A DNA stretch of 64,000 nt from Erythrobacteraceae bacterium (GTDB lineage Bacteria; Pseudomonadota; Alphaproteobacteria; Sphingomonadales; Sphingomonadaceae), in assembly GCA_027487015.1 (NCBI GenBank), contig JAIYEK010000169.1, forward strand, positions 9,080 through 73,079, read 5' to 3'. Made by a program: the position numbers and the translations under genes. Under the pieces are notes generated by a model that did no database searches, was not told where the DNA came from, and saw only the letters and a program-made list of their open reading frames with translations. Shown one piece after another: positions 417 through 25,975 of the stretch (positions within the stretch are counted from its first letter, which is position 1; every line of letters starts with the position of its first letter).

Positions 417-475
417 TTGGCCGTATATGGCCAATAATATCGACATTAAGGACATATTCGGCCATATATGGCCGA
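417..475. promoter_or_regulatory. pair of 18-bp palindromes, putative HipB operators
   Basis: TTGGCCGTATATGGCCAA (417-434) has one central mismatch. TCGGCCATATATGGCCGA (458-475) is a perfect palindrome. Their centres are 41 bp apart, just upstream of the internal ATG at 499 that begins the HTH part of the antitoxin ORF. Confidence 0.6.
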
Positions 476-498
476 TGATTCTCACACTTCATGATCAG

Positions 499-786
499 AT
501 GACGAACCTCGGCAAGCGGATCAAAGTCCGCCGCCTGGCCCTCGATCTTACGCAGCAAGCTGCGGCTGCCAAAGCAGGAGTAGCTCACCGAACGTGGCGA
601 CGGATGGAAGCCGAAGGCGCAGCTTCCATCGAAGACCTTGTTCGCGCCGCCATTGCGCTGCGATGCGATGAGGGCATTGCCGCGCTGTTCCCAGAGATGG
701 CGGCAAACAGCATGGATGAACTGCTCGCGCAGCAACGCAAGGCAACCAAGCCACAGCGGCAGCGCGCTGCGGGGACAAGGCCATGA
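499..786 (+). CDS. hipB: XRE-family HTH antitoxin, HipB-like
   Basis: MTNLGKRIKVRRLALDLTQQAAAAKAGVAHRTWRRMEAEG is a typical Cro/C1 HTH. The stop overlaps the hipA-like start. The ORF track starts at 427, but that extension covers the operator palindromes, so ATG 499 is preferred. Confidence 0.75.
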   Translation: MTNLGKRIKVRRLALDLTQQAAAAKAGVAHRTWRRMEAEGAASIEDLVRAAIALRCDEGIAALFPEMAANSMDELLAQQRKATKPQRQRAAGTRP

Positions 787-2045
787 AGCTTACTCCGGGA
801 ACGCCCTTGGCAGTGGGGCTACTCACCGATCAGAATTCACCGGCGCGTTCGGTCGGCAGGCTCGCGATGGCTGCTGGACTGGCGCAGCTCGAATGGTCGG
901 CAGACGTCATTGCCGAGGGCCTCACAATCTCTCCCCTGCGCTACCCAGCCGAGCCCGGTTTGCACTCTGCGCGCAGTCGGACATTCGATGGCCTTCACGG
1001 TTTCTTGTCGGATTGCCTGCCCGATGCCTGGGGGATGCTGTTGTTGAAACGTCGGGTCCAGCAGTTGGGCAACCGTTTCGAAGATCTCGATGCGGTCGAC
1101 CGGCTAGCCATGGTTGGCACGAAAGGGCGCGGTGCTCTGGTCTTTCAGCCTGAAACACTCACGGGCGAGCCAGCTGACAGCATCGACCTTGACCTTCTGG
1201 CCGATGAAGCCCGCCATGTGCTGCTGGGCGAGGAGTCCGAATTGGATGACCTGCTAGCGCGCCTCGGCGGCGGTTCTGGCGGCGCGCGGCCGAAAGTCCA
1301 CGTGGCGATCGGGGCAGACGGCAGGCTGTTCGCCGGAGACGAATTGACTGTCGCGGGAACCGAAAACGCCAGTGAGGAATGGATCGTCAAGTTTGCAGCA
1401 ACCAACGATCCCGCTGACATTGGGCCACTGGAAGAGGCCTACGCCAGGATGGCCCGCGCCGCGCATATCGACATGGCTGAAACACGGCTGATCCCTTCGG
1501 CGACCAAGCCAGGCCATTTCGCAACCAAGCGGTTCGATCGACCCGCGCCCGGCAAGCGGCTGCACATGGTCAGCCTTGGTGGAGCGCTCGAAGCATCACC
1601 GCATATGCCGAGCGTCGACTATGACGGGTTCCTGAAAGCGACATTGGCCATCACCCATAGCATGGCAGACGTGGAACAGGCCTTCCGTCGAATGGTCTTC
1701 AATGTGCTCTCGCGAAATCGCGACGATCATGTCCGCCAACATGCATACCTGATGGATGATCGGGGGAACTGGCGGCTTGCGCCTGCCTTCGACCTCACGT
1801 TCTCAAACGGCCCCGGCGGCGAGCATTACATGGCTGTTCTGGGCGAAGGCCGCGCCATCACTCGCGAGCATGTCGAGAAGCTTGGGAAGAATCATGGGAT
1901 CCCCGCCAAACGTGTTGCCGCCGCTATCGACGATGTCCGTGCGGCCCTCGCCGATTGGCCGTCGCATGCGCGTGACACCGGAGTTGGACAATCGCTGCCT
2001 TTGGTGCGCGACGGTCTGGACGAAGTTGCGCGCCTGTTCGGCTGA
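783..2045 (+). CDS. hipA: HipA-family serine/threonine kinase toxin
   Basis: The N-terminus matches the HipA coupling domain (LPDAWGMLLLKRRV..., DRLAMVGTKGRGALVF). GGSGGARPKV is present. The C-terminal kinase core reads SRNRDDHVRQHAYLMDDRGNWRLAPAFDLTFS. There is a 4-nt overlap with hipB. Confidence 0.9.
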   Translation: MKLTPGTPLAVGLLTDQNSPARSVGRLAMAAGLAQLEWSADVIAEGLTISPLRYPAEPGLHSARSRTFDGLHGFLSDCLPDAWGMLLLKRRVQQLGNRFEDLDAVDRLAMVGTKGRGALVFQPETLTGEPADSIDLDLLADEARHVLLGEESELDDLLARLGGGSGGARPKVHVAIGADGRLFAGDELTVAGTENASEEWIVKFAATNDPADIGPLEEAYARMARAAHIDMAETRLIPSATKPGHFATKRFDRPAPGKRLHMVSLGGALEASPHMPSVDYDGFLKATLAITHSMADVEQAFRRMVFNVLSRNRDDHVRQHAYLMDDRGNWRLAPAFDLTFSNGPGGEHYMAVLGEGRAITREHVEKLGKNHGIPAKRVAAAIDDVRAALADWPSHARDTGVGQSLPLVRDGLDEVARLFG

Positions 2046-2146
2046 GTTATCCGTTCCGAGCATCAATTTGCTCGCGCAAGGTGGAAAGCGCGTCTTGGCC
2101 GAGAAAAATTTGCTGCATTTACTGATGAATCGCCCATTATGCCCTT

Positions 2147-2177
2147 TTGACAATCACCCTACGTTGGCTTGGATAAT
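2147..2177 (+). promoter_or_regulatory. candidate sigma70-type promoter upstream of the ankyrin-sigma gene
   Basis: TTGACA (2147-2152) and GATAAT (2172-2177) lie in a visibly AT-richer intergenic stretch. The spacer is 19 nt, which is long, so this is weak. Confidence 0.25.
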
Positions 2178-2254
2178 CGGAAATTCCTTATGGAACGCAA
2201 TCAGTCATCGTTCCGTCAACATTTGGTGCAATCGGCTAATGGCGCGCGGGCTTC

Positions 2255-4618
2255 ATGAAGCCAGAAAAAACTCGATCACTCGAATTCATGACCGAGGAGG
2301 AGAGAGCCTTTCACGCTTGCCGTGATCGCGAGACGCTGTCGGTGACAGATGAGGCTGGGCGGAGTTTGCTCCATATTGCTGCGCAAGGAGGAAAGGCCGC
2401 GATCTGCCGAATTTATCTCAATGCTGGGATAGATCCATCGAAGGTCGACAATGTCGGGCGGACCGCAGCCGACCTAGCCAAGCTTGCAGGTTATGCATCC
2501 TTGTCACGATTGCTGGAAAATGCTGCCGCCCAACAAACCAAGCCGACAGCACAAGGGGCTACCAAGGGATACGATCAGCCACTCGATGTCCGTGAGCAAA
2601 GGGCCCTGATTGCTGGAGATCTTGACGTCTTGGTTGGATTGATAGCCGCCAAGCGACTAGATGCCCGGAACGCAAAAGGAGACTCACCGATCCATCTCGC
2701 TGCGGCCGGAGGTCATTTGCTTCTATGTAGTCAGCTGTTCGAGGCCGGTGCCGACACGTCGAGCCGGAACAACAGTGGGCAGACACCTGCAGATATGGCC
2801 TCAGAAGCAGGTCATCGGCAATTGGCAGCTATGCTCCGTGGTCTGAACCACGAAAGGCTAAAGCCGGGAGCTCAGGCCGCCCCCCCCGTTGCGAGAGTAG
2901 AGGGCGACTATGCCGATGCCTCCAATCAGGAAATGGATGCCCTTGCCGAGCTTGATTTCGACTCGGAAGAGGAGCCGGTCGCATTCCATGCTCGGCAGGA
3001 CATCGATACGGTGTCTGCTACCTTCGTCGCCATTCCATCAGGGTCGGGATTGCGGACGGGAGATATTGCGGAGAACGAAGATTGGGAAGTGCCGAGTAGC
3101 CTTGCGAAGGTTCGGGCGAATGATCATGTGGCCGATAGCTCGACGGATGAGTTTGCCGGTGCAGCCGCAGGAATACCCGATTTTTCGTCACTCGATGGTC
3201 GTTCCAGCCGGCGGCCCCGCAAACTCATAAGTACGCGCTTCCAAATCGACGAAGCTGCATGTCGCCGCTGGGTTCGCGATAGGCTTGCCACTGGCGAGGC
3301 TGATGACCAAGCCATAGGAGACTTGCTAGGCGAATGTCGTGGGAATCAATCTCCCGACGAGCTTGCTGTGAATGTCCTCAAGGCACTAGCGGATGCCGGT
3401 ATCCGTACCGAGGAATCGACTGAGCCTTGCCTGCAGCTTCATTCGCCTTCGACTATCTTCGTCGACGAGGATGATCTCGTCGAGGCAATCGCAGCTGCTT
3501 GTACGAGAAATACGGTCGTTCCAGGGCGCCAGCTATTCAGCGTTGACCGGGCGACCGAACAACGCCTCGTTCGGGAGATTTCGAAAGCTAGGCACGAATT
3601 GCTGAATGCGATCCTCGACGATCCAGTATTGCTCGCCGCAATTGTCATGCGCGGTGAAAAGGTACTCGAGCGTGAAATCGCAGTAGATGCCTTTACCGAT
3701 CTTGAGATCGAGGTTGCCGATGACGAAGATTTTGATGGGGGATTCTCCATCAATTTGGAAACCTTGCGGGAAGTGCGAGATGCGGGGGTAGCGATCGGCG
3801 GGCGTGCACGTCGACGGGCTATGGAGTCTCTTGATGGTCTGGAACTAACCAGATCGTGCCTAAACGATTTAGCTCTTGAAGTCGGAGGCAAGACCGCAAG
3901 CGCGATTGGGCACCTTCTCGCTGCCTGCGATCGTTCTGCCGAGAGTTTTCTTCTGGCCCATCTTCCATTCGCAAGGCGCGAAACAGCCAAGATGGCGCTA
4001 CCAGACGAAGATCCGGAAGAATTGTTTCAAGAAGCATATTTCGCACTACGACGTGCAGTTGAGCGGTTTGATCCCGATCGCGGCGTACGCTTCTATCTCT
4101 ATGCTCTCTTCTGGATCCGGCAGCAGATTGGCCGATGGCGCCTAAATACTATGTCGTTGATCCGGGTACCTGTTCATCGCTACGAACTTAATTCAAAGAT
4201 CACCGCCTTCAAGGAGGAATTTTTGGACCAATACTATCGTGAGCCTACTGATCTGGAAATCTCAAATCACCTTGAGTGCGATGTCAAAGCGATCAAATCA
4301 TTGGCACTAGCGCTGTCGAAGCCTTTGGTATTCGATCAAATCATGTCGGACCGGGCAGATGTTGAAGATTCACCCGAAGAACTGGCGAGACGGCGGCAAT
4401 CGAATAAACTAATCAGGCATGAGCTGAATGAGCTCGATGAACGTCAGAATGACATTCTCCAAATGAGGTTTGGCATCGACCGCGATGATGAAATGACCTT
4501 GGAAGAAATTGGACAAATATACGGAGTCACGCGCGAACGAATTCGTCAAATTGAAGCAAAAGCTTTAGCAAAGCTGGGCCATCCTGGACGTGTTCGTTTC
4601 CTCCGAGAGTTGCTGTGA
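2255..4618 (+). CDS. ankyrin-repeat / sigma-70 family fusion protein (787 aa)
   Basis: N-terminal ANK-like repeats: GRSLLHIAAQGGKAAICRIYLNAGIDPSKVDNVGRTAADLAKLAGY and KGDSPIHLAAAGGHLLLCSQLFEAGADTSSRNNSGQTPADMASEAGH. The C-terminus carries sigma70 regions 2-4: EAYFALRRAVERFDPDRGVRFYLYALFWIRQQI, LIRVPVH, LDERQNDILQMRFGI...MTLEEIGQIYGVTRERIRQIEAKALAKLGHP. The stop overlaps the next start. Confidence 0.85.
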   Translation: MKPEKTRSLEFMTEEERAFHACRDRETLSVTDEAGRSLLHIAAQGGKAAICRIYLNAGIDPSKVDNVGRTAADLAKLAGYASLSRLLENAAAQQTKPTAQGATKGYDQPLDVREQRALIAGDLDVLVGLIAAKRLDARNAKGDSPIHLAAAGGHLLLCSQLFEAGADTSSRNNSGQTPADMASEAGHRQLAAMLRGLNHERLKPGAQAAPPVARVEGDYADASNQEMDALAELDFDSEEEPVAFHARQDIDTVSATFVAIPSGSGLRTGDIAENEDWEVPSSLAKVRANDHVADSSTDEFAGAAAGIPDFSSLDGRSSRRPRKLISTRFQIDEAACRRWVRDRLATGEADDQAIGDLLGECRGNQSPDELAVNVLKALADAGIRTEESTEPCLQLHSPSTIFVDEDDLVEAIAAACTRNTVVPGRQLFSVDRATEQRLVREISKARHELLNAILDDPVLLAAIVMRGEKVLEREIAVDAFTDLEIEVADDEDFDGGFSINLETLREVRDAGVAIGGRARRRAMESLDGLELTRSCLNDLALEVGGKTASAIGHLLAACDRSAESFLLAHLPFARRETAKMALPDEDPEELFQEAYFALRRAVERFDPDRGVRFYLYALFWIRQQIGRWRLNTMSLIRVPVHRYELNSKITAFKEEFLDQYYREPTDLEISNHLECDVKAIKSLALALSKPLVFDQIMSDRADVEDSPEELARRRQSNKLIRHELNELDERQNDILQMRFGIDRDDEMTLEEIGQIYGVTRERIRQIEAKALAKLGHPGRVRFLRELL

Positions 4619-6105
4619 TGGGTCACCCAAGAAACGTGCCTCCCGCTGCCGGAGCGATGCTCGAGTCTCTGCGCGGTCTTGGGTATACGACGGCGACAGC
4701 TATCGCAGACCTGATTGACAACTCGATCAGTGCGGAAGCATCGCTGGTCGATATCCATTTTGCATGGGCAGGTGCCGACAGTTGGATCAGAATAGCTGAC
4801 AACGGCAAGGGCATGTCCGACGCCGATCTGGAGTCCGCCATGCGGCTAGGCGCTCGTGACCCGAGAGAAGCGCGAACCCCGGGTGATCTTGGCCGGTTCG
4901 GAATGGGGCTGAAAACCGCCTCGTTCTCGCAGGCAAGAATTCTGACTGTTGCGAGCCGCGCTCAAGGCCAAGGCAAGTGCTGCCTTAGATGGGACTTGGA
5001 CAACCTTGGGGGCGAAGCGGGCCATTGGTTGCTGCACGAAGGATGCAAGCTTGGCTCGGAAGATCGCCTTGCAACGGATTGCACCTCAGAGATTGGTACA
5101 GTTGTGCTATGGGAAAATCTCGACCGCATCGTGACAGATGGATTTTCGGCCCAAGACATGATCGATCTCGCCGATGAGGTCGAAGCTCACCTAGCCATGA
5201 CATTTCATCGGCTGCTCGATGACGGATTGACACTCAAGCTCAATGGGCAGCGAATTCGAGGGTGGGACCCTTTCCTGACAGGACACCCTGGAAAGGCCCT
5301 GGAAAGTGTGGAGTACAAGTTCCTCCATGCCTCGGGCGTCGTCGCACAGTGTCATGTTCTCCCACACAAGGATCTGCTCAAGCCGGGCGAACACGAGGCA
5401 GCCGCCGGTCTAGGCGGTTGGGTGGCACAGCAGGGTTTCTACATCTACCGGAACAAGCGGCTGCTACTCGCAGGTGGCTGGCTTGGATTAGGAGAGCGCG
5501 GTCGGCGCTGGACTCGCGATGAGCCACATCGACTTGCCAGAATTCGCTTGGACATTCCGAACAGTGCGGATTCGGAGTGGAAGATCAATATCCTGAAGTC
5601 CACTGCGAGCGTTCCCGTCCGGCTACGAAGCCAGTTCTTGAAGCTGGGGTCCGAGACCCGCGACGTCGCAAGACGCGTTTTTGCGCATCGCGGTCGGCTC
5701 ATCACAGCAGGCGGCAAACCTGGCGGAAGCTTGCCCGATGTATGGGCAGCCCGACATTCGACCAAAGGTATCTCATACCGCATTTCAAGAGATCATGATC
5801 TTGTAGCTGCACTTCTTGAACGCGCGGGTCCGATGAAAGCTGACCTGCTATCGCTGCTACGCTTGATTGAAGAAACCGTGCCCGTGCAGCGCATATGGTT
5901 AGATACTGCCGAGCAGAATGACACCCCGAAGGGCGATTTCGTTGCAGCTCCGACAGCCGAAATCGTGGACACACTGACCAGCATCTTCGAGGCGCTGGTC
6001 GAATTCAGAGGCATGGATCCGGACGAGGCGCGACAACGGTTGGCAAGAACTCCGCCGTTCGATCAGTACCCGGAAATCGTCGCCGAAATTGGCAGGAAGA
6101 ATTGA
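4615..6105 (+). CDS. GHKL-superfamily ATPase (HATPase_c_3 / MutL-MORC-like ATP-binding protein)
   Basis: Bergerat-fold motifs are present: DLIDNSISAEA (N box), IADNGKGMSDADL (G1), GRFGMGLKTASFS (G2). The start is GTG 4615 or ATG 4618, overlapping the upstream TGA (4616-4618). Confidence 0.8.
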   Translation: MMGHPRNVPPAAGAMLESLRGLGYTTATAIADLIDNSISAEASLVDIHFAWAGADSWIRIADNGKGMSDADLESAMRLGARDPREARTPGDLGRFGMGLKTASFSQARILTVASRAQGQGKCCLRWDLDNLGGEAGHWLLHEGCKLGSEDRLATDCTSEIGTVVLWENLDRIVTDGFSAQDMIDLADEVEAHLAMTFHRLLDDGLTLKLNGQRIRGWDPFLTGHPGKALESVEYKFLHASGVVAQCHVLPHKDLLKPGEHEAAAGLGGWVAQQGFYIYRNKRLLLAGGWLGLGERGRRWTRDEPHRLARIRLDIPNSADSEWKINILKSTASVPVRLRSQFLKLGSETRDVARRVFAHRGRLITAGGKPGGSLPDVWAARHSTKGISYRISRDHDLVAALLERAGPMKADLLSLLRLIEETVPVQRIWLDTAEQNDTPKGDFVAAPTAEIVDTLTSIFEALVEFRGMDPDEARQRLARTPPFDQYPEIVAEIGRKN

Positions 6106-8972
6106 TGTCGACAAATGATCAGCGCGCGTTTGATGCGATCCTCAGCATGGCGCAAAACCTTCTGCGCCGCACATCGATCAAGACTGGCTTGGCGATCACT
6201 CCAGAAATGATCGATGCAGAGCTGAACAAGCTCGCAGTGTTGATGGAGGACGACTTTGCGATCGTTGATCGTGAGCAGCTCGTCGATGAGTTGATCCGAC
6301 GGTACAGCCATACGGTTGGCCGCAATGCCACCCTGTCGGACGACTCCGATCACGTCCCTTGGCTTACAGCCGAACGGAAGAGGGATTGGTTGTATTGGCG
6401 CCGCTACTCAGAATACATGGAAGCCAAGATACCTCTAGTAGCCCTCGACGCTCTCGACGAGGCGACGGATGAGGTATTGGGCCACCTAGAAGACCCGAAC
6501 CGTGAAGGCGATTGGGACAGACGCGGCCTCGTCGTTGGTCACGTTCAGTCAGGCAAGACTGGGAACTACACCGGGCTAATCTGCAAGGCGGCAGACGCCG
6601 GCTACAAGATCATCATCGTTCTTGCGGGGTTGCACAACAACCTCCGAGCCCAGACCCAGATCCGCCTAGACGAAGGGTTCCTTGGTTTCGCGACGCTGGC
6701 GAATGTGGAAGACCTGCCAGCGGTTGGGGTTGGATTGATCGACGCGGATCATTCGATCAGGCCAAACTACGCCACAAACCGCACGGAACATGGCGACTTC
6801 ACCAAGGCGGCGGCGGCCAAGCTTGGGGTGACCCCCGAGCAGCGCCCTTGGCTGTTCGTGGTCAAGAAGAACAAGACTGTATTGGAGCGGCTGCTAAGCT
6901 GGATCCGCAACCGCGTGGCCGATTACACAGACCCTGTGACCGGGCGGAAGATTGTTACTAATCTGCCAATTCTAATCATCGACGACGAGTCGGATCACGG
7001 ATCTGTCGATACAGGAGAAGATGTCGTCGATGAAAACGGCAAGCCTGATCTCGAGCATCAGCCAACCACGATCAATCGGCTCATCAGGTCCATCCTGAAC
7101 CACTTCGCCCGTTCAGCCTACGTTGGTTATACCGCCACGCCCTTCGCCAACATCTTCATCCACGACAAGGGGGCGACCGAAGAGCACGGTCCGGATCTAT
7201 TCCCGGCAGCGTTCATTACGAACCTAGCAGCGCCATCCAACTACATCGGCCCCGGTCGGGTGTTTGGTTCGGCTTCATCGACTGCCGCAGACCTGCCACT
7301 GACCCGCCCCCTAGCCGAGGCGGAATACGCACCTTGGGTTCCTCCGAAGCACCGCAATGGCTTTCGGCCGAAATGGGATGGCAGCGCAAAGATTCCTGAT
7401 TCGCTCGAAGAAGCCATCAGGTCCTTCATCTACGCCTGCGCCGTTCGGAAGCTCCGTGGCCAAGGCAATCGTCATTCGTCGATGCTGGTGCATGTGACCC
7501 GATTTACGTCGGTGCAAAACGAAGTGGTGGGCCAAATCGCCGAGTATGTCCGCGAACTCAGGGGGCGCTACCAGCGCGGCATAGATTTGGCCGAGACCGA
7601 AAGCCTGATGCATTCGGAGTACGAGGAAAAGTTCAGGCCGGGAATGGCCCGAATCCGCAATGAGCTGGTCGAGGACGAAAAGCTGGCCGATTTCGCTTGG
7701 GCACAAATCCGCGAGGTGCTTCCTGACGTCATCGCCGACATCAAGGTCCGGGAAATCAACGGATCGGCCAAGGACGCTCTGGATTACGTAGACAACGAGG
7801 GGACCGGCCTCAAAGTCATTGCTGTCGGCGGAGACAAGCTTGCCCGCGGACTGACGCTCGAAGGCCTTTGCACCAGCTATTTTCTGCGCACAGCGCGAAT
7901 GTACGACACTCTCATGCAAATGGGCCGGTGGTTCGGGTATCGGGACGGCTATCTCGATGTCTGCAGACTCTACACCACATATGAGTTGATAGAGTGGTTC
8001 GGCCATATCGCTGACGCTGCCGAAGAGCTGAGGCAGGAGTTTGACAACATGGTCGCTGCAGGCGCAACTCCGAAGGATTTCGGGTTGCGGGTCAAGTCAC
8101 ATTCGGTGTTGACCGTCACCTCGCGCGCAAAGATGCGCAATGCGCGTCCCATGTCGTTCACCTATTCCGGGGATCTGCTGCAGACGATTGTCTTCCCAAA
8201 TCGAGCCGACGAGATCGGACTCAACTTCAAGGCCGCCGACCGCTTCATTTCAGGGTTGGGGCCAGCGCATGACCTGAACGAGCAGCAGCACCTTGTCGAA
8301 GGTCAGAAATGGTCAGGCCACCTGTGGCGCAACATTCCTGCACAGCAGGTAACGACCTTCTTGAGAGCCTACAGGACCCACCCTGCGAGCTTCCGGATCA
8401 TGAGCCCGTTGATCGCCGATTTCATCGACGAGATGAACAAGGACGGGGAGCTGACCAGCTGGACAGTGGCCCTGATTGGCAAGGACTCGGCCTCTGCTGA
8501 AGATGAGGCCGTTATTGCAGGTCTCAAGCTGGCGATGCTGACCCGCCGCAAGACCGCCAATCATGATGACCGGTATTCGATCAAGACCCTGATTTCTCCT
8601 CGCGATCAAGCCATCGACCTAACCGAAGGACAATGGAAGGCAGCTCTCGAACTTAGCAGGGAAACTTGGCGGCGGGATACCGAACGAAACGAGGGCAAGG
8701 AGCCTCCGACGGAACCTCGCGGCCCTGCCATCCGCAAGGTGCTAGGCGAAGGGTGGTCGAAATCAGGAGTGCCCGCTGTGCCCCAAAGAGGCCTGCTGAT
8801 GCTCTACCTGCTTGATCCCGCAGCCAGCGAAATCCCGGAACTGAAAGGTGCCGATCCGATAGTAGCATTCGCCGTCAGTTTTCCGGGGAGCACCTCCGAG
8901 CGACGTGTAAGCAACGCAGCCTATATGGCCAACAGCGTAATGTGGGGGGCGTTGAATGACTGGGTGGACTGA
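6102..8972 (+). CDS. Z1 domain protein (helicase/ATPase-like, restriction-associated)
   Basis: GHVQSGKTGNYTGLICKAADAGYKIIIVLAGLHNNLRAQTQIRLDE and ILIIDDESDHGS are the Walker A/B-like signatures I associate with Z1-domain proteins. The start overlaps the upstream stop (TGATG). Confidence 0.75.
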   Translation: MMSTNDQRAFDAILSMAQNLLRRTSIKTGLAITPEMIDAELNKLAVLMEDDFAIVDREQLVDELIRRYSHTVGRNATLSDDSDHVPWLTAERKRDWLYWRRYSEYMEAKIPLVALDALDEATDEVLGHLEDPNREGDWDRRGLVVGHVQSGKTGNYTGLICKAADAGYKIIIVLAGLHNNLRAQTQIRLDEGFLGFATLANVEDLPAVGVGLIDADHSIRPNYATNRTEHGDFTKAAAAKLGVTPEQRPWLFVVKKNKTVLERLLSWIRNRVADYTDPVTGRKIVTNLPILIIDDESDHGSVDTGEDVVDENGKPDLEHQPTTINRLIRSILNHFARSAYVGYTATPFANIFIHDKGATEEHGPDLFPAAFITNLAAPSNYIGPGRVFGSASSTAADLPLTRPLAEAEYAPWVPPKHRNGFRPKWDGSAKIPDSLEEAIRSFIYACAVRKLRGQGNRHSSMLVHVTRFTSVQNEVVGQIAEYVRELRGRYQRGIDLAETESLMHSEYEEKFRPGMARIRNELVEDEKLADFAWAQIREVLPDVIADIKVREINGSAKDALDYVDNEGTGLKVIAVGGDKLARGLTLEGLCTSYFLRTARMYDTLMQMGRWFGYRDGYLDVCRLYTTYELIEWFGHIADAAEELRQEFDNMVAAGATPKDFGLRVKSHSVLTVTSRAKMRNARPMSFTYSGDLLQTIVFPNRADEIGLNFKAADRFISGLGPAHDLNEQQHLVEGQKWSGHLWRNIPAQQVTTFLRAYRTHPASFRIMSPLIADFIDEMNKDGELTSWTVALIGKDSASAEDEAVIAGLKLAMLTRRKTANHDDRYSIKTLISPRDQAIDLTEGQWKAALELSRETWRRDTERNEGKEPPTEPRGPAIRKVLGEGWSKSGVPAVPQRGLLMLYLLDPAASEIPELKGADPIVAFAVSFPGSTSERRVSNAAYMANSVMWGALNDWVD

Positions 8973-9963
8973 GGAAGGGCTGATCAGTTCTTGGCGTGCT
9001 CTCGCTACGCGGCAAGGCGACGCAGAATGGCGCCTTGTCAATTTGGCCGCGATCGACTTGGTGACAGTTCAGGCCGGACGGCATTTTCCTGACAGCCGTG
9101 AGGCGCTCGTCGTGGCGTTTCCGGCCGGATGGTTGGGCAAAGTCTCGGGCCTTCCAGATGGTAAGGGCTTTGAAGCAACTCTGATTGAAGGAAATCCAGC
9201 CTTTCTAGGAAAGGATGTAATCGCCTTGATCAGGCGGCTTGAAGGCGCATTCGACATCTTCGCCATCATGGTCGTCGATCTGCTCCGATTTCTTGAAGAT
9301 AGCCGATCCAAGGACGCAAGAGCGCTTGTTGCTGGTTTTCTCGAGCGTGTCAGGGAATGGCAGAGCTTCATGTCCCGTGGAATCAGGCCGCTCTCTCAGG
9401 AGGCGCAAGCGGGACTCTATGGCGAGCTTGCCGCACTGCAGGTGCTCGTCGACGTGATGCCCGGGGGATCGGCGTTCGATGCTTGGAAGGGGCCGATGCA
9501 TGCCGCACAGGATTTCCATCTCGGATCGGGTGCCTTGGAAGTTAAGAGCACCACCACGACCGACGTTTTCAAGGCTCGCATAAACAGTATCGAGCAACTG
9601 GATTCAGAGCGGCAGCCGATGTTCTTGGGTGCAATCCGCCTTAAGGAGGATACTGGCGGCTCCAGCCTCAATAACTTGATCAGTCTGCTGCGTGACCTTG
9701 CAAATGATCGCGGCCGCAGGCGAGGATTCGACGCACTTCTGATCATGGCCGGCTATTACGATGAGCACGCAGCCTATTATGAGCGCGCCCTGTCTCTCGA
9801 CGAGTTCAGATGTTTCAAAGTGGATGATGAGTTCCCGGTCCTTCGTCGGGCACAGTTGCCGGCTCAGGTAACAGCAGCAACCTATACACTTGATTTGAGC
9901 TCGATCTCGCAACCTGACTTGGGCATCGACGGGGCATTGTCGGCACTGGGGATTTCTGAATGA
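8956..9963 (+). CDS. PD-(D/E)XK motif protein (putative nuclease)
   Basis: QDFHLGSGALEVKST fits a D...E-x-K core. It overlaps Z1 by 17 nt and shares an ATGA overlap with the AIPR gene. Confidence 0.6.
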   Translation: MTGWTEEGLISSWRALATRQGDAEWRLVNLAAIDLVTVQAGRHFPDSREALVVAFPAGWLGKVSGLPDGKGFEATLIEGNPAFLGKDVIALIRRLEGAFDIFAIMVVDLLRFLEDSRSKDARALVAGFLERVREWQSFMSRGIRPLSQEAQAGLYGELAALQVLVDVMPGGSAFDAWKGPMHAAQDFHLGSGALEVKSTTTTDVFKARINSIEQLDSERQPMFLGAIRLKEDTGGSSLNNLISLLRDLANDRGRRRGFDALLIMAGYYDEHAAYYERALSLDEFRCFKVDDEFPVLRRAQLPAQVTAATYTLDLSSISQPDLGIDGALSALGISE

Positions 9964-11759
9964 GTATCGAAGAATTTCACCGGGGTATCCGTTCGGAAAT
10001 CCAGGCAATCGTAGCCGAACGAATATTGAGCGATGACGGCACGTTTCCGTCGGAAGAACTCATCTACGCCGAACTCGCCATGGAGCAGGTCGCAAATGCG
10101 AACATTTGCGATTCACCGACCATTTGTCACTGGACAGGCACCATTGGAAACGCTCGCCTCCGGATCACTGGTTACGCGCTATCGAACGATGAAACCTGCC
10201 TCGATCTGTTTGTGACCCGCTATTTCGGGACGGATGAGATCGAGAACCTCCGCGACTCCGAGGCAACCTCGACAGCGAAGGAAGGCATAAAGTTTCTGTT
10301 CGAAGCCGCCGGTGGCCGCCTCGCATCCCGGATGGAAGCCAGCGGCGATATCTATGAGCTGGTCCTGTTCATCAAAGAACACTGGTCCAGCTTGGAGCAA
10401 TTGCGTGTTTTCGTCGTCACCGATGGCCAGACGAAATCAAAGCGGTTCGCTCCCAAGGAAGTTCAAGGCAAGATTGTCGCAATCGAGGCGATGGATATCG
10501 AGAGGCTCTATCGTCACACAACGGGCAAGCCTCGTGACGAGGTATCCATCAGCTTCGAACAGACGCTGGGGCGTCCACTCCCATGCATCCACGTACCCGA
10601 CCCTGATGCGGACTATGAATACGCACTTACAGCCATTCCGGGCGAGGTAATCCGGGAGCTGTACCTGCGATACAATTCCAGATTGCTAGAAGCCAATGTG
10701 CGGACCTTCCTCGGTTACCGGAGCAGAGTGAACTCCGGCATCGCAGAAACCCTGTTGAAGGAGCCCGAGCATTTCATGGCCTTCAACAACGGGTTGGTCA
10801 TCGTCTGCGACAGTGCCGAACTGAGCCGATGCGAGGATGGCGGCTTGGGATTCTCGTTGATTAAGGGGCTGCAGATCGTCAACGGCGGCCAGACAACCTC
10901 ATCCATCTTTTTCGCGTCGCGCGATCGGAAGGAAATCGACCTCAGCCATGTGATGGTACCGGCGAAGGTCATCATCTTGAAAGGTGACGACGACGATGCC
11001 CGCGAGCGGTTGATTTCCAACATCTCAAAGTTCGCAAACAGCCAGAATGCTGTGAAGACCTCCGATCTTTCGGCAAACCGCCCCTTCCACGTCCAGCTTG
11101 AGAAGCTGTCAGAGGAAGTCTGGTGCGCTGACGGGGCAAGCAGGTGGTTTTACGAGCGCGCAGCCGGCGCCTACCAGGTAAGGCTGCTCCGCGAGCGTAC
11201 CGACGCTAAGCGGCGTGAATTCCAGAAAATCGTTCCTACAAAGCACAAGCTCTCGAAGAATGATGTTGCGAAGTTTCATGAAGCTTGGCGCGGAAAGCCT
11301 GCCCAAGTTGCGTTGGCGGGTGAAAAGAATTTTGCCGCCTTCATGGCAGCGTTGGATGAAAACCCCGAACTGGTGCCCACTCCACTGACACCGGAGTGGT
11401 ACCGGGCCCTAATTGCGAAAGTGGTCATTTTCCGGGCCATCGAAGGCATGATCAAGAAGAAGGATGCGAAGGAGACGTTCCGGCAGGGCTGGGTTAATAT
11501 TGCGACCTACACGGTCGCCGCGCTGGCCCAGAAGATGCCGGGGCGGATCGATTTCGAACTGGTCTGGCAGCAGCAGGACATTTCTGAAAGCTTCGGAAAG
11601 CTGCTCTGGGAATGGGCCAAGGTTGTGAACGCCACGTTTGACCGGATCGCCCCGGGACGGCAGTTTTCGGAAGTCGCCAAGCGCGCCGATACTTGGAAGG
11701 CTGTCCAGAATGCTGACTTTCCAGAACCGAAGGATCGCATTCCCGAAATCAAGGCTTGA
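9960..11759 (+). CDS. AIPR (abortive infection phage resistance) family protein
   Basis: The call rests on its size, on position as the last gene of a GHKL-Z1-PD-(D/E)XK cluster, and on the central block FNNGLVIVCDSAE...GLQIVNGGQTTSSIF, which is typical of AIPR as I recall it. Confidence 0.65.
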   Translation: MSIEEFHRGIRSEIQAIVAERILSDDGTFPSEELIYAELAMEQVANANICDSPTICHWTGTIGNARLRITGYALSNDETCLDLFVTRYFGTDEIENLRDSEATSTAKEGIKFLFEAAGGRLASRMEASGDIYELVLFIKEHWSSLEQLRVFVVTDGQTKSKRFAPKEVQGKIVAIEAMDIERLYRHTTGKPRDEVSISFEQTLGRPLPCIHVPDPDADYEYALTAIPGEVIRELYLRYNSRLLEANVRTFLGYRSRVNSGIAETLLKEPEHFMAFNNGLVIVCDSAELSRCEDGGLGFSLIKGLQIVNGGQTTSSIFFASRDRKEIDLSHVMVPAKVIILKGDDDDARERLISNISKFANSQNAVKTSDLSANRPFHVQLEKLSEEVWCADGASRWFYERAAGAYQVRLLRERTDAKRREFQKIVPTKHKLSKNDVAKFHEAWRGKPAQVALAGEKNFAAFMAALDENPELVPTPLTPEWYRALIAKVVIFRAIEGMIKKKDAKETFRQGWVNIATYTVAALAQKMPGRIDFELVWQQQDISESFGKLLWEWAKVVNATFDRIAPGRQFSEVAKRADTWKAVQNADFPEPKDRIPEIKA

Positions 11760-11813
11760 TGGCATAGGCCCGGTTATTGGCCTGGCACAGAAGTCGGCTC
11801 CCACTCGGTCTTT

Positions 11814-13313
11814 TCAAGTGATAAGATCGTGGACGATGTGTGCAATCTGCTTGGCGAGGAAGCAGGGAACGGCATTGCCCACCTGCTTATACTGTTCGGT
11901 ACGCGGGCCGCAGAAGTAGTAGTTATCAGGGAATGTTTGCAGCCGGGCTGCCTCTCGGACGGTCAGAGATCGACACTGCTCAGGGTCGGGGTGAATGAAG
12001 TAGTGTCCGTCCTTTGATATATGGCTGGTCACAGTCGTTGAAGGAGCGTCCGCAAGCTGTACCCTGAAGCGATCCGCAAATGCCCCGCTCTCCCGGTTCG
12101 CGTGATTAGGTTGCAAGATGGCGGGGAATTCCTTCAATTTGGGAGAGTAACCATACGACTGCGCAAAAGCTGCAGCATAAAGGTATCGCCCCAGATCGCC
12201 TTTAATGTGGCCCCGTGTTTCATGTTGCAACGAGACTTCCAGCAAGGGGTCTTCAAGCCAGTCGGCGAGTGCCTTCGATGGGATCGGCATCGCGACATCG
12301 GCCGAGACACGCGGCTGACTGCCCATCTCATTGAGTTTTGAAATATGCCGCAGGACCGGAATGACTGAGCATGGCAGCGTATCATCCGCCGCCAGCTTCG
12401 AAGCCCACTCTCTCACGGCTTCCTGCCAATTTGTGGCAGCATCATTCTTACTGAGTCCGCTGCGCAGTTTAGGCATACCGCCGATCGCCGCGACAACAGA
12501 GTTGGATTGCGATGGCTCTGATTTGGTCAATAGCGGCCCTGTGAGCGTCCTTTCCTTCGCCACATCCGCCCTGAGACCAATAATGAAGACCCGATGCCGG
12601 GCCTGTGGGACCCCGTGCTCCTCAGCACGGACCACGAATTCTTTGGCCGTATGATCGACCAGCAGGTCGCCCTCCGCAGTAAGCGGAATGAGGACATATC
12701 CGTCACCTGCCGACCGGAGGTCTTCGAAAACCCGTTCAAAGATCGGACCTCCGTGCACGTGACTGGACAATATGCCCTTCACGTTTTCCATCACGAAGGC
12801 TGCAGGCTTCAACCGGTCAAGGATTGCAACGTATTCCCGGTAAAGGAAATGGCGCCCATCGCTCTCCGCGACATAGTCCTTTTTTCCCGCATTCCGCGAC
12901 CGGCCAGCCAACGAGTATGCTTGGCACGGTGGGCCACCAATCAACACAGTACGTCCGCTACAACGTTCGCGGGCACCATCGAGAATGGGGGCCAAATGTT
13001 CGAAAACACCGGCAGTTCCAAGCTCAAGTTGCTGCGCCTCTTCAATCGCTGTTTTCCAGTTAGCTGGATAGGATAAGGCCCAATCCGGCATCGCACGCGA
13101 ATGATTCAACGCCTCGTAATACTCAGCAGGAAACCCGCCTTCAAAGCTGCGGAGAAAAGCGCGAAGACGAAGTGTTTGGATGGCAAAATCATCCTTTTCA
13201 ACAGAGAGCCTTATCGACATGGGCGTGGCGCTTTCCCCGCCAGCGGCAGAGAACCCCTCACCCAGCCCGCCGGGTCCTGCGAATAAATCTACAATTTCAA
13301 TCTTGCTGCTCAA
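11814..13313 (-). CDS. dcm: DNA (cytosine-5) methyltransferase
   Basis: Motif I IVDLFAGPGGLGEGF, motif IV LIGGPPCQAYSLAGR, motif VI FVMENVKG, and C-terminal YKQVGNAVP are all present. The start is TTG at 13313 preceded by GGAGG. There is no in-frame ATG upstream before a stop. Confidence 0.93.
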   Translation of the reverse strand: MSSKIEIVDLFAGPGGLGEGFSAAGGESATPMSIRLSVEKDDFAIQTLRLRAFLRSFEGGFPAEYYEALNHSRAMPDWALSYPANWKTAIEEAQQLELGTAGVFEHLAPILDGARERCSGRTVLIGGPPCQAYSLAGRSRNAGKKDYVAESDGRHFLYREYVAILDRLKPAAFVMENVKGILSSHVHGGPIFERVFEDLRSAGDGYVLIPLTAEGDLLVDHTAKEFVVRAEEHGVPQARHRVFIIGLRADVAKERTLTGPLLTKSEPSQSNSVVAAIGGMPKLRSGLSKNDAATNWQEAVREWASKLAADDTLPCSVIPVLRHISKLNEMGSQPRVSADVAMPIPSKALADWLEDPLLEVSLQHETRGHIKGDLGRYLYAAAFAQSYGYSPKLKEFPAILQPNHANRESGAFADRFRVQLADAPSTTVTSHISKDGHYFIHPDPEQCRSLTVREAARLQTFPDNYYFCGPRTEQYKQVGNAVPCFLAKQIAHIVHDLIT

Positions 13314-13719
13314 GTGGCCTCCATCTGGAGCATTCCTATATGGTCTCCGGCGATTTTGACCAGGCCGAAACTTGACAAGAAACCGATTGATTGACCGACA
13401 TCCTATCGCCTCAAGCTTGGATCAACTTTGTCGGGCGAGTCTTGGTGATCTGAATGACCGCGAATGCGGACGATCCGGAACGGCTTCTTTCAGGGGCGTA
13501 GATCGGAATAGCGGACGTTCGGGACCGCCAGTTGGCGTGTGAGTTTCGCGCCCTATGTGGGTCGTTCCGACTTTGATTAGGCGGTGCCCGAAAGGTATTA
13601 TTCGATGGTCGCGGATAGCGACAGATCCGAGCCTCTTGTCAGCCATTCGCAGGGCGGCAAATCCGGCGAGCGACAAAGCCGAGCCTTCGAAGCCTGCCGA
13701 TGTCGAGCCCGGCAGCAGA

Positions 13720-14589
13720 TTAGTGACCGGCGGATTTAGCTGCAGCGTCCGTCCAGCGAATCAGATTCCGATATCCGTTATCCAGCTTCCAGTCATAGCT
13801 AGCAGTGCCGGTATCAAGAGGCATGACGCAGCCTGGAGAAGGCCTTTGCAACCACCGCGGCCAGCACGTCAGCGGTTGGGCAATTTTTGAATAGGGGTAC
13901 CAACCGCCGTTGACAAACTCGTAGATTCTCAAGTCCCAGCCGAGCGCCATCTGTGCTAGCGGGTTGAACCCAGCCGGCAAAAATCCCGTGCGTGGGCATT
14001 CACATTTGTCGATATGGACCGCAACGAGACCATTTCCCCGCGCGAGACTGCGCGCGATCTCATAGCGAACCCATTCGCGGGACCAGGTCTCGGTGCCAAC
14101 GAGTACGCAGGTGACGGACGTCCCGAGCAGTCCTCTGTCGATCACGCGCCTGAGATTGGCCGGGTTCGTACGCTTTACTCGCTCCCAAAGACTGCGATCA
14201 TTCGGAGTGAGAAGGCGGCCTTTGTCTGCCGGTCTGATCTTGCCCGAGTTGCGGACGTGATTAACCCGAAACACATCGCTAAAATGAAACGAATAAAACA
14301 CGTTCCGGACTTTGATGGCTTCGCGGGCTGGCTGTTGCGGCGGCGGTAACTCAAGAGCCTTGAGGATATCTCCGAGGAAATTCCGGTGCGGCTCCTTGGC
14401 CGATTGGTCGCTGCTTCCGAAGAGACTGTTAGTTCGGGGGACGGCGGCCAGTTGTTGAAACCGGTTTTGCGCGGGCTTCGGTGTGTCCAGCAGCGCCGCG
14501 AGCGGGGACATCTGATGGTTCGTCCGAGGTGGCAGGTCGGCCAGCGCTCGGGCGATGATTTCCAGCAGGTCTCTGCTCGGCTGGTCCAT
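13720..14589 (-). CDS. ThsB-like TIR-like (DUF1863-type) protein with a roughly 95-aa low-complexity N-terminal extension
   Basis: VRNVFYSFHFSDVFRVNHVRN, SLWERVKRTNPANLRRVIDRGLLGTSVTCVLVGTETWSREWVRYEIARSLARGNGLVAVHID, and ASYDWKLDNGYRNLIRW follow, block by block, the Thoeris ThsB / MTH538 TIR-like pattern as I remember it. Third positions in this frame are GC-rich across the overlap with the upstream ORF. Confidence 0.8.
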   Translation of the reverse strand: MDQPSRDLLEIIARALADLPPRTNHQMSPLAALLDTPKPAQNRFQQLAAVPRTNSLFGSSDQSAKEPHRNFLGDILKALELPPPQQPAREAIKVRNVFYSFHFSDVFRVNHVRNSGKIRPADKGRLLTPNDRSLWERVKRTNPANLRRVIDRGLLGTSVTCVLVGTETWSREWVRYEIARSLARGNGLVAVHIDKCECPRTGFLPAGFNPLAQMALGWDLRIYEFVNGGWYPYSKIAQPLTCWPRWLQRPSPGCVMPLDTGTASYDWKLDNGYRNLIRWTDAAAKSAGH

Positions 14590-15019
14590 GACTTGCTATA
14601 TATAGAAGAATGGACATGCCGGCCAGTAGGGCTGCATAAACCCCGGCAACCGACCAGCTGAAAAAAGCGACGCCAATCCTCCTCGCATTGAGAGGCCGGG
14701 GGCTGAGGCTGATAGCGTCGGCGCTGCTGAGGGGTGCAGAACACGTCGACTCATAAAGATCTCGAAATCGCCTCTCCTGCGCTAGATAATAGGCATCGAG
14801 CAGCGCGAACAGCAAAGGAACCGCCACGCCAGCCCAGACCAGCTCAGGCACAGGCTTCTGAAATGCAACGGCGACCAGGGCGGCGAGCACCGTTATGCAA
14901 AAATTCTTTGCGCTGGCGCTGAAACCCGACAGGCGCGAAATAATGCTCTGAATCATCTCCAGATGCGTCAGACGCATCTGGACCAGCGATTCCTCGGACA
15001 GCGAGGGCGGTGGGTCCAT
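14429..15019 (-). CDS. small multi-pass membrane protein (3-4 predicted TM segments), candidate effector
   Basis: ATG 15019 is preceded by GGGAGAAG and lies 21 nt after the pAgo stop. Hydrophobic segments are FCITVLAALVAVAF, LVWAGVAVPLLFALLDAYYL and IGVAFFSWSVAGVYAALLAGMSILLYI. The last ~53 codons overlap the ThsB-like gene out of frame and have poorer GC3, so the true C-terminus is uncertain. Confidence 0.65.
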   Translation of the reverse strand: MDPPPSLSEESLVQMRLTHLEMIQSIISRLSGFSASAKNFCITVLAALVAVAFQKPVPELVWAGVAVPLLFALLDAYYLAQERRFRDLYESTCSAPLSSADAISLSPRPLNARRIGVAFFSWSVAGVYAALLAGMSILLYIASHGPAEQRPAGNHRPSAGRPATSDEPSDVPARGAAGHTEARAKPVSTTGRRPPN

Positions 15020-15040
15020 CCGGCTTCTCCCTTGCAACGA

Positions 15041-16543
15041 TTAGATATAGTGCCGGAACGGCAACGGTGGCGGGTCGAGCTCGGGAGGAATCGCCGTCAA
15101 TACGCGCCCGACGCGATCGGCGAACCGGAGCGTGACAGGCATGCCGTCGGCGTAGAGGCACGCATTGAAATTGACCTTCGTCAGCGCGAGGACATCTGCC
15201 ATCACGGTCCGCAGATCGGCTTCGCCTCGGCAGATGTCGATCAGCAGTGGGTTCGGAACCTCGCGCCCCTGATAGGTCTGTAGCCGGGGGACAAAGCCCA
15301 AGGTCCACAACAGCCCCGATCGTGCGTTGAACGGGCGAGCCAACCCGCGAAGCGACGTGAATTTGTCAGCCCGGTAGAGCTTTCGCAGATTGTTGCGTTT
15401 GATGCGCACCCCCACGAGCTTCGTCGTTGCCGGCACAGCCGCTTCGAAGCCCGCCCACTCAACTTCGTTGAAACGCGCTCGCCCGTGGATAAAGACCTCG
15501 CGGGGGTCCTCGCCATGCTGTTTGCGATAGGCCCCAATCGCCTTGCGCATCAGCGCCTCGGCATGCGCACGATCAAGATGGAATTCATGCGTCTCGTCCG
15601 AATACCAATCGCCGATGGCCCCCTTGAACACGAGCCCGTCGCTGTCGGAAAGAAACATCTGCGCGCCGCAGCAGGCCTGGCTTCCCGAATGTTCGTCGAG
15701 GCGCTTGTAAACCATCCCAAGATAGCAAACGCCGGGCCGAATTCCGTCGAGGCGCCAAGGCTGCCCCCCGCCCTTGTAGAAGGCGCCCGTCGCGAGGTTC
15801 CACGCGACATCGACCGGATCCTGCAATCTTCGCTGCGGGAATACATGCGGTGCGAGCGTCGTTTCGCGGATCACCTGAATCACCGCGCGCGAACCGAGCA
15901 GCCTGCCCTTGAGCTGGTCGCGGAAGTCGCGCGCATAGCGATGCATTTCGGCACCCTTGTTGATCGCGTCGAGAAAAGGAAGAAGAGGTTCTGATTTCAA
16001 AGACCGGGCCTGCTTTCGCGAGAGGACCTGATCCTTGTGCGTTCGTTCGGCGACGGGAACCTGCGATTTGGGTCGCCCGCGCTCGTAGATCGTCTCGGGA
16101 ATGACGACACACCAAAGCGAAACCGGAAACTCCTCTTCGTCGATATATTGGGCAATTCTGCTCTCAAAGAGGCTGACTGTATTGTAGATGCGCTGGTGTC
16201 CGTCTGCATGGCGCAACGCCTCGTCGATGTCCTTGGGGTCGATTTCGATGCTAGCGATAGGCGCTTCCGACCAGGTGCAGCGAAAGGTTGCCGCGAAGCC
16301 GGGGAACAGGGACTGTTTGGGATCGTCTGCCTTGCTGACCGCGATAGGCCCCTGAATCGATGACACCCATTGCCGCAAATAGCGAAGCCCATCGGGTGTT
16401 CCAATCGCGCCGACGCGCAACTCCTTGGGTTGGCGCCGATCATGCACCGGTCCAAAAGCGGTCAGCCCGTCCTTGGGATGCTCCATTGACTGATCGTAGC
16501 CGAAAACGCAGCGCGGCTCGGGGATATGCCAAATTTCGCTCAT
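15041..16543 (-). CDS. short prokaryotic Argonaute (MID-PIWI only), SPARTA-type
   Basis: It is 500 aa from ATG 16543, with an ATGA overlap with the TIR-APAZ stop. The MID-type motif AFYKGGGQPWRL is present. PIWI-like blocks include CYLGMVYKRL and QMFLSDSDGLVF. The C-terminal end reads ...PPLPFRHYI. Confidence 0.85.
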   Translation of the reverse strand: MSEIWHIPEPRCVFGYDQSMEHPKDGLTAFGPVHDRRQPKELRVGAIGTPDGLRYLRQWVSSIQGPIAVSKADDPKQSLFPGFAATFRCTWSEAPIASIEIDPKDIDEALRHADGHQRIYNTVSLFESRIAQYIDEEEFPVSLWCVVIPETIYERGRPKSQVPVAERTHKDQVLSRKQARSLKSEPLLPFLDAINKGAEMHRYARDFRDQLKGRLLGSRAVIQVIRETTLAPHVFPQRRLQDPVDVAWNLATGAFYKGGGQPWRLDGIRPGVCYLGMVYKRLDEHSGSQACCGAQMFLSDSDGLVFKGAIGDWYSDETHEFHLDRAHAEALMRKAIGAYRKQHGEDPREVFIHGRARFNEVEWAGFEAAVPATTKLVGVRIKRNNLRKLYRADKFTSLRGLARPFNARSGLLWTLGFVPRLQTYQGREVPNPLLIDICRGEADLRTVMADVLALTKVNFNACLYADGMPVTLRFADRVGRVLTAIPPELDPPPLPFRHYI

Positions 16544-25905: not shown

Positions 25906-25975
25906 TGCGTCCTCATGTTCACATGTGGGCATGTGAGACTGTGCGATTGTTGGGATGTGCGGGTGTGAACATGGT
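25906..25975. repeat. CACATG-type repeat array, copy C (intergenic, between the relaxase stop and the parA start); putative parS/operator
   Basis: Sequence: cctcatgttcacatgtgggcatgtgagactgtgcgattgttgggatgtgcgggtgtgaacatgg. It is bounded by the 10-bp inverted termini CATGTTCACA / TGTGAACATG. Confidence 0.8.

Follow-up and report, generated by a model that had tools for sequence, protein, structure and literature searches.

An ankyrin-sigma fusion in an Erythrobacteraceae genome as the predicted MzaA of a divergent mzaABCDE anti-phage operon

The mzaABCDE (MZA) operon is presented in PMC9523054 as a validated defence system credited to Gao et al. 2020, with mzaA as a sigma factor. In the literature, phage resistance has been shown only for the Salmonella and E. 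coli systems (PMC9523054; bioRxiv 10.1101/2022.06.16.496414), and the E. coli operon restricts T4 variants and its MzaD protein cuts DNA in vitro (bioRxiv 10.1101/2022.06.16.496414). Operons joining a paraMORC (GHKL) ATPase, an SF2 helicase, a novel restriction endonuclease, an AIPR protein and DCM were described by Iyer, Abhiman and Aravind 2008 with no mention of a sigma factor or ankyrin repeats (PMC2292703). These operons, like the 'type II' MZA-like systems described in PMC9523054, share one core with the locus treated here, namely GHKL ATPase, Z1, PD-(D/E)XK and AIPR proteins and a cytosine methylase; mzaA is present in only a few of the systems of PMC9523054, whereas the sigma gene is found in our locus and in most loci of the survey reported below. 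The locus lies in a 64,000-nucleotide stretch (the window) of contig JAIYEK010000169.1 from an Erythrobacteraceae bacterium (GCA_027487015.1, positions 9,080 to 73,079), and the gene in question is an open reading frame (ORF) at window positions 2255-4618 (+), encoding a 787-aa fusion of ankyrin repeats to a sigma-70-like protein.

This ORF heads a set of five co-oriented genes at 2255-11759 (+), encoding in order the sigma protein, a GHKL ATPase, a Z1 protein, a DUF4420 PD-(D/E)XK nuclease and an AIPR protein. They are matched in the same order by PADLOC MzaA-E (the best match in each case) and by NCBIfam NF041931-NF041935, the records for MzaA of the Salmonella/E. coli type being NF041931 and PADLOC PDLC02203. 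All five proteins fall below the equivalog cut-offs of their NCBIfam models (Table 1), of which the first is passed by E. coli MzaA (823.2 versus 800 bits), and they therefore represent a divergent MZA subfamily. Annotated E. coli mzaA-mzaE loci align with the window DNA at 68-69% inside mzaC. We regard the genes at 2255-11759 as almost certainly a divergent, Sphingomonadales-type mzaABCDE anti-phage operon with a convergent dcm gene, and ORF 2255-4618 as its mzaA. The operon structure that the initial annotation had set out, with every junction overlapping (TGATG, TGATG, 17 nt and ATGA), was read directly and stands. The TGA of mzaA (4616-4618) overlaps ATG 4618 or GTG 4615 of mzaB, that of mzaB (6103-6105) overlaps ATG 6105, that of mzaC (8970-8972) lies beyond ATG 8956 of mzaD with a 17-nt overlap, and that of mzaD (9961-9963) overlaps ATG 9960 of mzaE. 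As read from these junctions, mzaA is translationally coupled with the downstream mza genes. A role of MzaB as an anti-sigma factor of the RsbW/SpoIIAB type was considered and ruled out, since the protein is of the HATPase_c_3 type with secondary matches to MutL, restriction enzymes and sacsin; two JGI labels reading 'anti-sigma regulatory factor' are likewise unsupported by the domain matches of MzaB.

The same annotation had taken a sigma factor to be alien to restriction-like operons, which does not apply here. The ankyrin-sigma gene is the canonical MzaA, already catalogued by PADLOC and NCBIfam, because the E. coli protein has the same architecture and aligns with it in both parts, and the arrangement is not new. 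E. coli MzaA (687 aa) consists of an N-terminal ankyrin block, Sigma70_r2 and Sigma70_r4, and is 24% identical to the window protein overall, 34% in the ankyrin part and 37% in the sigma part. In E. coli and Salmonella, as in the window, mzaA is the first of five genes, overlaps or abuts mzaB, and encodes N-terminal ankyrin repeats, an acidic linker and C-terminal RpoD-like regions 2-4. The window differs from the enterobacterial type in its duplicated ankyrin block, seen only in a Sphingomonadales clade, in a middle region of another sequence type, found only in loci L003-L014 of the survey, and in the convergent dcm, which enterobacterial MZA loci lack. As a discovery the fusion matters little, being the MzaA of a validated and catalogued system that annotation pipelines already name. 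Such interest as is left lies in the presence of an almost entire copy of the housekeeping sigma factor within a restriction-like system.

The fusion could in principle be incidental, either an artefact of assembly or annotation or a sigma gene that landed by chance beside a restriction-like operon. Nothing was found in favour of this, although the AT-richness of the sigma-coding part, pointed out earlier, is borne out by measurement (GC 0.484 versus 0.57 in mzaB-E). The drop is limited to codon positions 1 and 2 (GC2 0.29-0.35) with GC3 unchanged and is therefore an effect of amino acid composition, not of foreign origin; identity to homologues, taken region by region, is even along MzaA with no mosaic, and a foreign or mosaic source of the AT-rich part is thereby ruled out. 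Some 43 independent homologue clusters from JGI, ENA, Logan and NCBI assemblies (with Sphingomonas and Rhizorhabdus among the named sources), at 47-100% identity, cover at least 93% of the query and all carry ankyrin and sigma domains; an assembly artefact is therefore excluded, and the fusion is real. The gene also recurs in position. A survey set of 80 diverse loci was obtained by a genome scan with an MzaB alignment and one genome per species. The count was confined to the 70 of these that offer 2.6 kb or more of DNA upstream of mzaB, and in 61 of them a sigma ORF stands directly 5' of that gene. Clusters, recurrence, codon-position GC and even identity together refute an incidental origin, to which we assign next to no probability. 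The start codon of the ORF is ambiguous between ATG 2255 and ATG 2288, both of which are kept in relatives.

The reading of the protein as ankyrin repeats followed by sigma regions 2, 3 and 4 is largely recovered by Pfam. Ankyrin families cover aa ~31-194 (Ank_2 4.6e-13, Ank 2.7e-09), and Sigma70_r2 at aa 568-626 (40.5 bits, gathering score 24) and Sigma70_r4 at aa 724-774 (65.8 bits, gathering score 24.1) are both above gathering. Sigma70_r3 at aa 644-704 scores 18.9 bits, below its gathering score of 25.3; AlphaFold2 (AF2) places a helical domain at aa 640-699, and the equivalents of H455 and E458 are kept (sigma residues are numbered throughout as in E. coli sigma-70, the reference being E. 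coli RpoD, verified against locus L087). The three motifs quoted in the initial annotation are located at aa 619-625 (FWIRQQI), aa 636-641 (IRVPVH) and aa 759-771 (TRERIRQIEAKAL), and in the AF2 model regions 2-4 span aa 560-787. The two ankyrin blocks are internal duplicates with 38% identity over 60 aa (E 3e-11). Of the 61 MzaAs aligned, only the window protein and that of Novosphingobium L003 have a second block; 57 others have a single detectable block, and L009 and L013 have none.

The segment between the ankyrin and sigma parts had been described as an acidic linker of about 350 aa. This holds for aa 201-324, which are acidic and disordered, with a predicted local distance difference test score (pLDDT) below 50 over aa 201-240 and 250-324 and a short helix between. 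It does not hold for aa 325-560, which are folded in a sub-model of aa 320-570 (pLDDT ~75-94 over this part and 79 for the sub-model; the full-length AF2 model has a mean of 67.7) and resemble the N-terminal regions of sigma-70. The tether carries a conserved NEDWEVP motif, which is a candidate docking motif. With the full-length model, Foldseek ranks E. coli sigma-70 chains first in the PDB, in alignments of 550-570 columns, and sigma-70 chains also come first, weakly (E 0.02), with the sub-model. A 58-sequence profile of the small domain (aa 322-392) has RpoD residues 3-58 as its best hhalign match (pairwise E 0.0057). These comparisons of profile and model are no more than suggestive of a resemblance between the small domain at aa 325-387 and sigma region 1.1.

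Several observations relate MzaA to RpoD. The best NCBIfam matches of the window protein outside MzaA are RpoD models, but it scores only 145.7 bits on the RpoD equivalog NF004208 (cut-off 555 bits) and is therefore not the primary sigma factor of the cell. The 61 full-length MzaAs of our alignment (A5: the window, E. coli and 59 from the surveyed loci) are matched by Sigma70_r4 in 61 cases, Sigma70_r2 in 60, Ank_2 in 59, Sigma70_r3 in 36, Sigma70_r1_2 in 27 and Sigma70_ner in eight. The MzaA of Gallionella L017 has Ank, Sigma70_r1_2, Sigma70_ner (3e-45) and all of regions 2, 3 and 4, and passes the RpoD equivalog itself (658.5 versus 555 bits, model positions 100-630). At the DNA level, E. 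coli mzaA is 78% identical to rpoD, a match obtained in all 5426 E. coli genomes; an identity of only 78% rules out recent gene conversion from the host rpoD in E. coli. Because relatives keep Sigma70_r1_2 and Sigma70_ner, L017 passes the RpoD cut-off and E. coli mzaA matches rpoD to this degree, we consider MzaA quite probably an RpoD paralogue, made up of a 1.1-like domain, a helical part resembling region 1.2 and the non-conserved region (NCR), and regions 2-4, with an N-terminal ankyrin module on a tether of about 120 aa, and expected to form holoenzyme on sigma-70-type promoters. It shares with RpoD regions 2 and 4 and a probable region 3; its -35 contacts are unchanged, it retains most of the residues for the -10 element and for core binding, and relatives still have region 1.2 and the non-essential region. 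It differs from RpoD in the added ankyrin module and acidic tether and in the place of its gene in a mobile defence operon. Over regions 2-4, MzaAs are 33-80% identical to E. coli RpoD (A5; L022, L058, L065, L017 and the window). Neighbour-joining puts the RpoD-like MzaAs at the base of the tree, with a true RpoD (P0045) interleaved with L058 and L065. This may stem from strongly uneven rates of evolution, or from host rpoD having been captured repeatedly or having served as donor in gene conversion.

In all 61 MzaAs the equivalents of R584, E585, R588 and Q589, which contact the -35 element, are invariant, as are those of R562 and T572, and R586 is kept in 60; Q406 and W434 are kept in 60, Q437 in 59, R441, H455 and D403 in 58, and Y430 in 54. 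The window protein keeps the equivalents of Q406, E407, Y430, W434, Q437, R441, H455, E458, R584, E585, R586, R588 and Q589; its Q592 corresponds to Q406 and its R760 and E761 to R584 and E585, with R764 and Q765 as further -35 contacts. Conservation in A5 is highest at the core-binding Q406 and at those side chains of regions 4.2, 2.4 and 3.0 that contact DNA. By this alignment, the family keeps the residues predicted to bind core RNA polymerase (RNAP) and to recognise the -35, -10 and extended -10 elements, and a holoenzyme with host core RNAP is therefore expected.

Variants of the protein among the surveyed loci deserve mention. In a Paracoccaceae metagenome-assembled genome (L007:7287-9992) and a Rhodovulum one (L008:7536-9992), MzaA has a GcrA N-terminal DNA-binding domain added after region 4 (Pfam 1.7e-15 and 2.7e-17, profile positions 1-49). 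The GcrA N-terminal domain reads methylated DNA in Caulobacter. The most distant MzaB loci, L079-L081, have no mzaA, and directly after mzaE they encode a convergent protein of 936-1347 aa in which Sigma70_r4 is the only recognisable domain; its top NCBIfam match is MzaA in L080 and L081, and in L079 the RpoS and RpoD models score slightly higher. Both the GcrA addition and these lone-region-4 proteins fit an action on DNA. In a Vicinamibacterales locus (L046:8902-9972) an ankyrin-only protein of 356 aa stands 5' of mzaB and matches the MzaA model over positions 1-93 only; it represents either an MzaA that was truncated or split or a variant naturally limited to ankyrin repeats. Two E. coli genomes were inspected (L001:5760-8602 and L002:4751-7602); an IS421 (IS4-like) insertion splits mzaB in both, and these MZA copies are probably inactive. 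A small regulator in place of MzaA was sought in the MzaA-less loci and rejected, the gaps holding vsr or nothing recognisable.

One way to explain a sigma factor at the head of such an operon, and a possibility raised in the initial annotation, is that it serves as a dedicated sigma which drives or times the restriction genes. By this account MzaA would be a timing regulator akin to the controller (C) proteins of type II restriction-modification (R-M) systems, an autoregulatory sigma that starts from a weak basal promoter, then boosts its own operon and thereby delays restriction relative to Dcm in a new host. The likeness is evident in gene order, as mzaA leads the operon, would be co-transcribed with the restriction genes and runs into the gene that follows, in the manner of R-M controller genes, in its carriage on mobile DNA (MZA occurs on elements with relaxase, RepC, integrase and Tra genes), and in a separately oriented methyltransferase. 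A strong dcm homologue is in view at 45 of the 80 MzaB loci and is downstream and convergent in 31, the commonest arrangement and that of the window, and the close relatives L084-L086 have the same gene order with a convergent dcm and vsr, on elements with relaxase, Tra, ArdC and integrase genes. Of the loci viewed in full, 45 have a sigma gene, and 33 of these also have dcm. A block of ~170 bp upstream of mzaA is likewise conserved, even in L084 and L086, where the genes further upstream are unrelated; it holds TTGACA (2148-2153), GATAAT (2173-2178) and a near-palindrome, GGAAATTCC, and as a putative regulatory block it travels with the operon. Its two hexamers are 19 nt apart, so no promoter is claimed, and a consensus sigma-70 scan of 1900-4800 with 16-18 nt spacers gave no site.

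Other features do not suit a timing regulator. The remaining 12 of those 45 loci, including the validated enterobacterial type, have the sigma gene and no dcm, and five fully viewed loci have dcm and no sigma (three have neither). C proteins are small helix-turn-helix (HTH) dimers of ~80-100 aa acting on a C-box operator, whereas MzaA is a sigma paralogue of 787 aa for which no separate DNA specificity is apparent; Pfam finds no Xre-type HTH family in the window MzaA, the sole HTH match being a sub-threshold one to HTH_28. An RpoD paralogue of 650-1000 aa with ankyrin repeats and a tether motif would also seem to exceed the needs of a timing switch. The specificity residues are those of sigma-70, which makes a private promoter specificity unlikely. 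A dedicated sigma with its own promoter is disfavoured because the housekeeping -35 contacts are unchanged and the -10 contacts nearly so, which leaves MzaA without an evident means of telling its own promoter from others. We consider the timing regulator rather unlikely.

The RpoD origin also invites the idea that MzaA is a decoy or guard which mimics sigma-70, so that phage hijackers or inhibitors of sigma-70 or RNAP, on binding region 4 or the ankyrin part, would set free or switch on the MzaBCDE nuclease. The initial annotation had likewise suggested a sigma-like decoy or sensor of a phage protein, or else a sigma that redirects host RNAP during infection. Phage anti-sigma factors, e.g. 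AsiA of T4, repeatedly target sigma region 4, and region 4.2 of E. coli MzaA is identical to that of E. coli sigma-70 over ~30 aa. Regions 2-4 reach 77-80% identity to RpoD in some lineages, true RpoD interleaves with MzaAs in the tree, and large lone-region-4 proteins stand next to mzaE in the MzaA-less L079-L081. Against this, many MzaAs are far from RpoD, the window copy being at 39%, and the GcrA domain of L007 and L008 points to action on DNA. The invariant positions, moreover, are DNA-contacting side chains and Q406, which a protein-binding decoy does not need; this is the pattern expected of selection for holoenzyme formation and promoter binding. A pure decoy is therefore disfavoured, the DNA-contacting side chains being the most conserved in the family, and the decoy reading appears distinctly improbable.

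We tentatively propose, as an idea that may well prove wrong in its particulars, that MzaA is a structural subunit which couples the MzaBCDE machinery to RNAP at promoters, with the ankyrin module and tether as a docking arm. Through translational coupling MzaA would be made in fixed proportion with MzaB-E and would join host core RNAP as a holoenzyme at promoters of the sigma-70 type. Its tethered ankyrin module could then dock the MzaBCDE ATPase, helicase and nuclease to RNAP and promoter DNA, so that the restriction complex would be loaded onto, or triggered by, transcription-engaged DNA such as the strong early promoters of an unmethylated phage or plasmid. Dcm methylation, where dcm is present, would mark self DNA. 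An unlikely further reading is that an alternative MzaA holoenzyme, recognising sigma-70-type promoters, acts as a DNA-finding arm whose ankyrin part loads or activates MzaBCDE at promoters, the unmethylated invader being cut when engaged, and that it may also report phage attack on sigma-70. The explanation as a whole, a divergent MzaA of RpoD origin in a coupled operon, we hold to be on balance probable.

Some observations weigh against this account. Within the window MzaA itself, no Sigma70_r1_2, Sigma70_ner or region 1.1 match was found by Pfam, and hhalign of MzaA aa 300-600 against RpoD gave no match. The assignments of region 1.1, region 1.2 and NCR have a weak structural and profile basis. 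Seven residues of region 2 are derived (N409Y, M413R, Y421P, Y425V, T429L, W433F and T440G); together with 39% identity to RpoD over regions 2-4, this divergence may mean that promoter melting or specificity is altered in the window copy. The MZA-like loci L049, L072, L073, L075 and L079-L081 work without a full MzaA, and the sigma factor is therefore not intrinsic to the enzymology of MzaBCDE. Finally, no experiment or mechanistic study on MzaA was found in the literature covered, a scope without Gao et al. 2020.

The options are nonetheless narrowed, and targets for mutation provided, by the RpoD origin, the invariant promoter contacts, the tether motif, the GcrA additions and the lone-region-4 proteins. 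If MzaA does tether a nuclease complex to RNAP, this would amount to a novel means of detecting foreign DNA, and if the DNA-finding arm were true, a restriction system would be coupled to transcription initiation.

Table 1. Coordinates of the features of mzaA, its operon and its surroundings (window positions unless a locus is given; cut-offs are those of the NCBIfam equivalogs)
Feature	Position	Strand	Basis or remark
mzaA	2255..4618	+	787 aa; PADLOC MzaA 2.6e-42; NCBIfam NF041931 1.2e-72, 245.9 bits (cut-off 800)
mzaB, GHKL (MutL/MORC-like) ATPase	4615..6105	+	Pfam HATPase_c_3 96.9 bits; PADLOC MzaB 8.9e-164; NCBIfam 632.8 bits (cut-off 850)
mzaC, Z1-domain ATPase/helicase-like	6105..8972	+	Pfam Z1 4.3e-83; PADLOC MzaC E=0, 1083 bits; NCBIfam 1165.9 bits (cut-off 1500)
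mzaD, DUF4420 PD-(D/E)XK nuclease	8956..9963	+	Pfam DUF4420 2.8e-65; PADLOC MzaD 3e-52; NCBIfam 284.3 bits (cut-off 420)
mzaE, AIPR protein	9960..11759	+	Pfam AIPR_N, AIPR; PADLOC MzaE 2.2e-153; NCBIfam 653.7 bits (cut-off 1050)
dcm, convergent C5-cytosine DNA methyltransferase	11814..13313	-	Pfam DNA_methylase 6.1e-46
Conserved upstream block of mzaA (putative promoter or regulatory)	2085..2254	+	Aligns window, L083, L084, L086
Ankyrin block 1, aa 8-95	2276..2539	+	Pfam Ank_3, Ank_5; AF2 helix hairpins, pLDDT ~76-90
Ankyrin block 2, aa 107-200	2573..2854	+	Pfam Ank_2, Ank; internal duplicate of block 1
Acidic disordered tether, aa 201-324	2855..3226	+	19% D/E, 10% K/R; AF2
Tether motif NEDWEVP, aa 274-280	3074..3094	+	W277 invariant, L279 nearly so (61 MzaAs, many phyla)
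Small folded domain, aa 325-387	3227..3415	+	AF2 pLDDT 75-87; probably sigma region 1.1-like
Helical region, aa 430-560, at the place of sigma region 1.2 / non-conserved region	3542..3934	+	AF2 pLDDT up to 95
Sigma region 2 (core binding, -10 recognition, melting; predicted)	3935..4150	+	Pfam Sigma70_r2
Sigma region 3 and 3.2 linker	4172..4369	+	Sigma70_r3 below gathering; AF2 helices 640-699, then low-confidence linker
Sigma region 4 (-35 helix-turn-helix)	4373..4615	+	Pfam Sigma70_r4
Lone-region-4 protein	L079:17388-21431	-	Only recognisable domain Sigma70_r4
Lone-region-4 protein	L080:17434-20832	-	Only recognisable domain Sigma70_r4
Lone-region-4 protein	L081:17458-20268	-	Only recognisable domain Sigma70_r4
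hipB-like HTH	427-786		Defence island
hipA	783-2045		Defence island
PDC-M50 pair	14429-15037	-	Defence island
ThsB-like TIR	13720-14589	-	Forms the PDC-M50 pair together with 14429-15037; defence island
SPARTA-like short prokaryotic Argonaute (pAgo)	15041-16573	-	With TIR-APAZ
TIR-APAZ	16540-18024	-	With short pAgo
TIR protein	20495-21787	-	With SLOG protein
SLOG protein	19725-20498	-	With TIR protein
TrwC relaxase	25975-29085	-	
RepC	30720-31910	-	

In the neighbourhood of the operon, tblastn found no vsr anywhere in the window, the two small ORFs after dcm (window 11760-13900) have no Pfam match, and an Rfam scan of the whole window returned no RNA family. A search of a plasmid collection gave no near-identical DNA, and its protein search gave generic sigma and partial matches only. 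The MZA operon lies within a dense defence island (window 427-31910) on an apparent plasmid or integrative and conjugative element (ICE).

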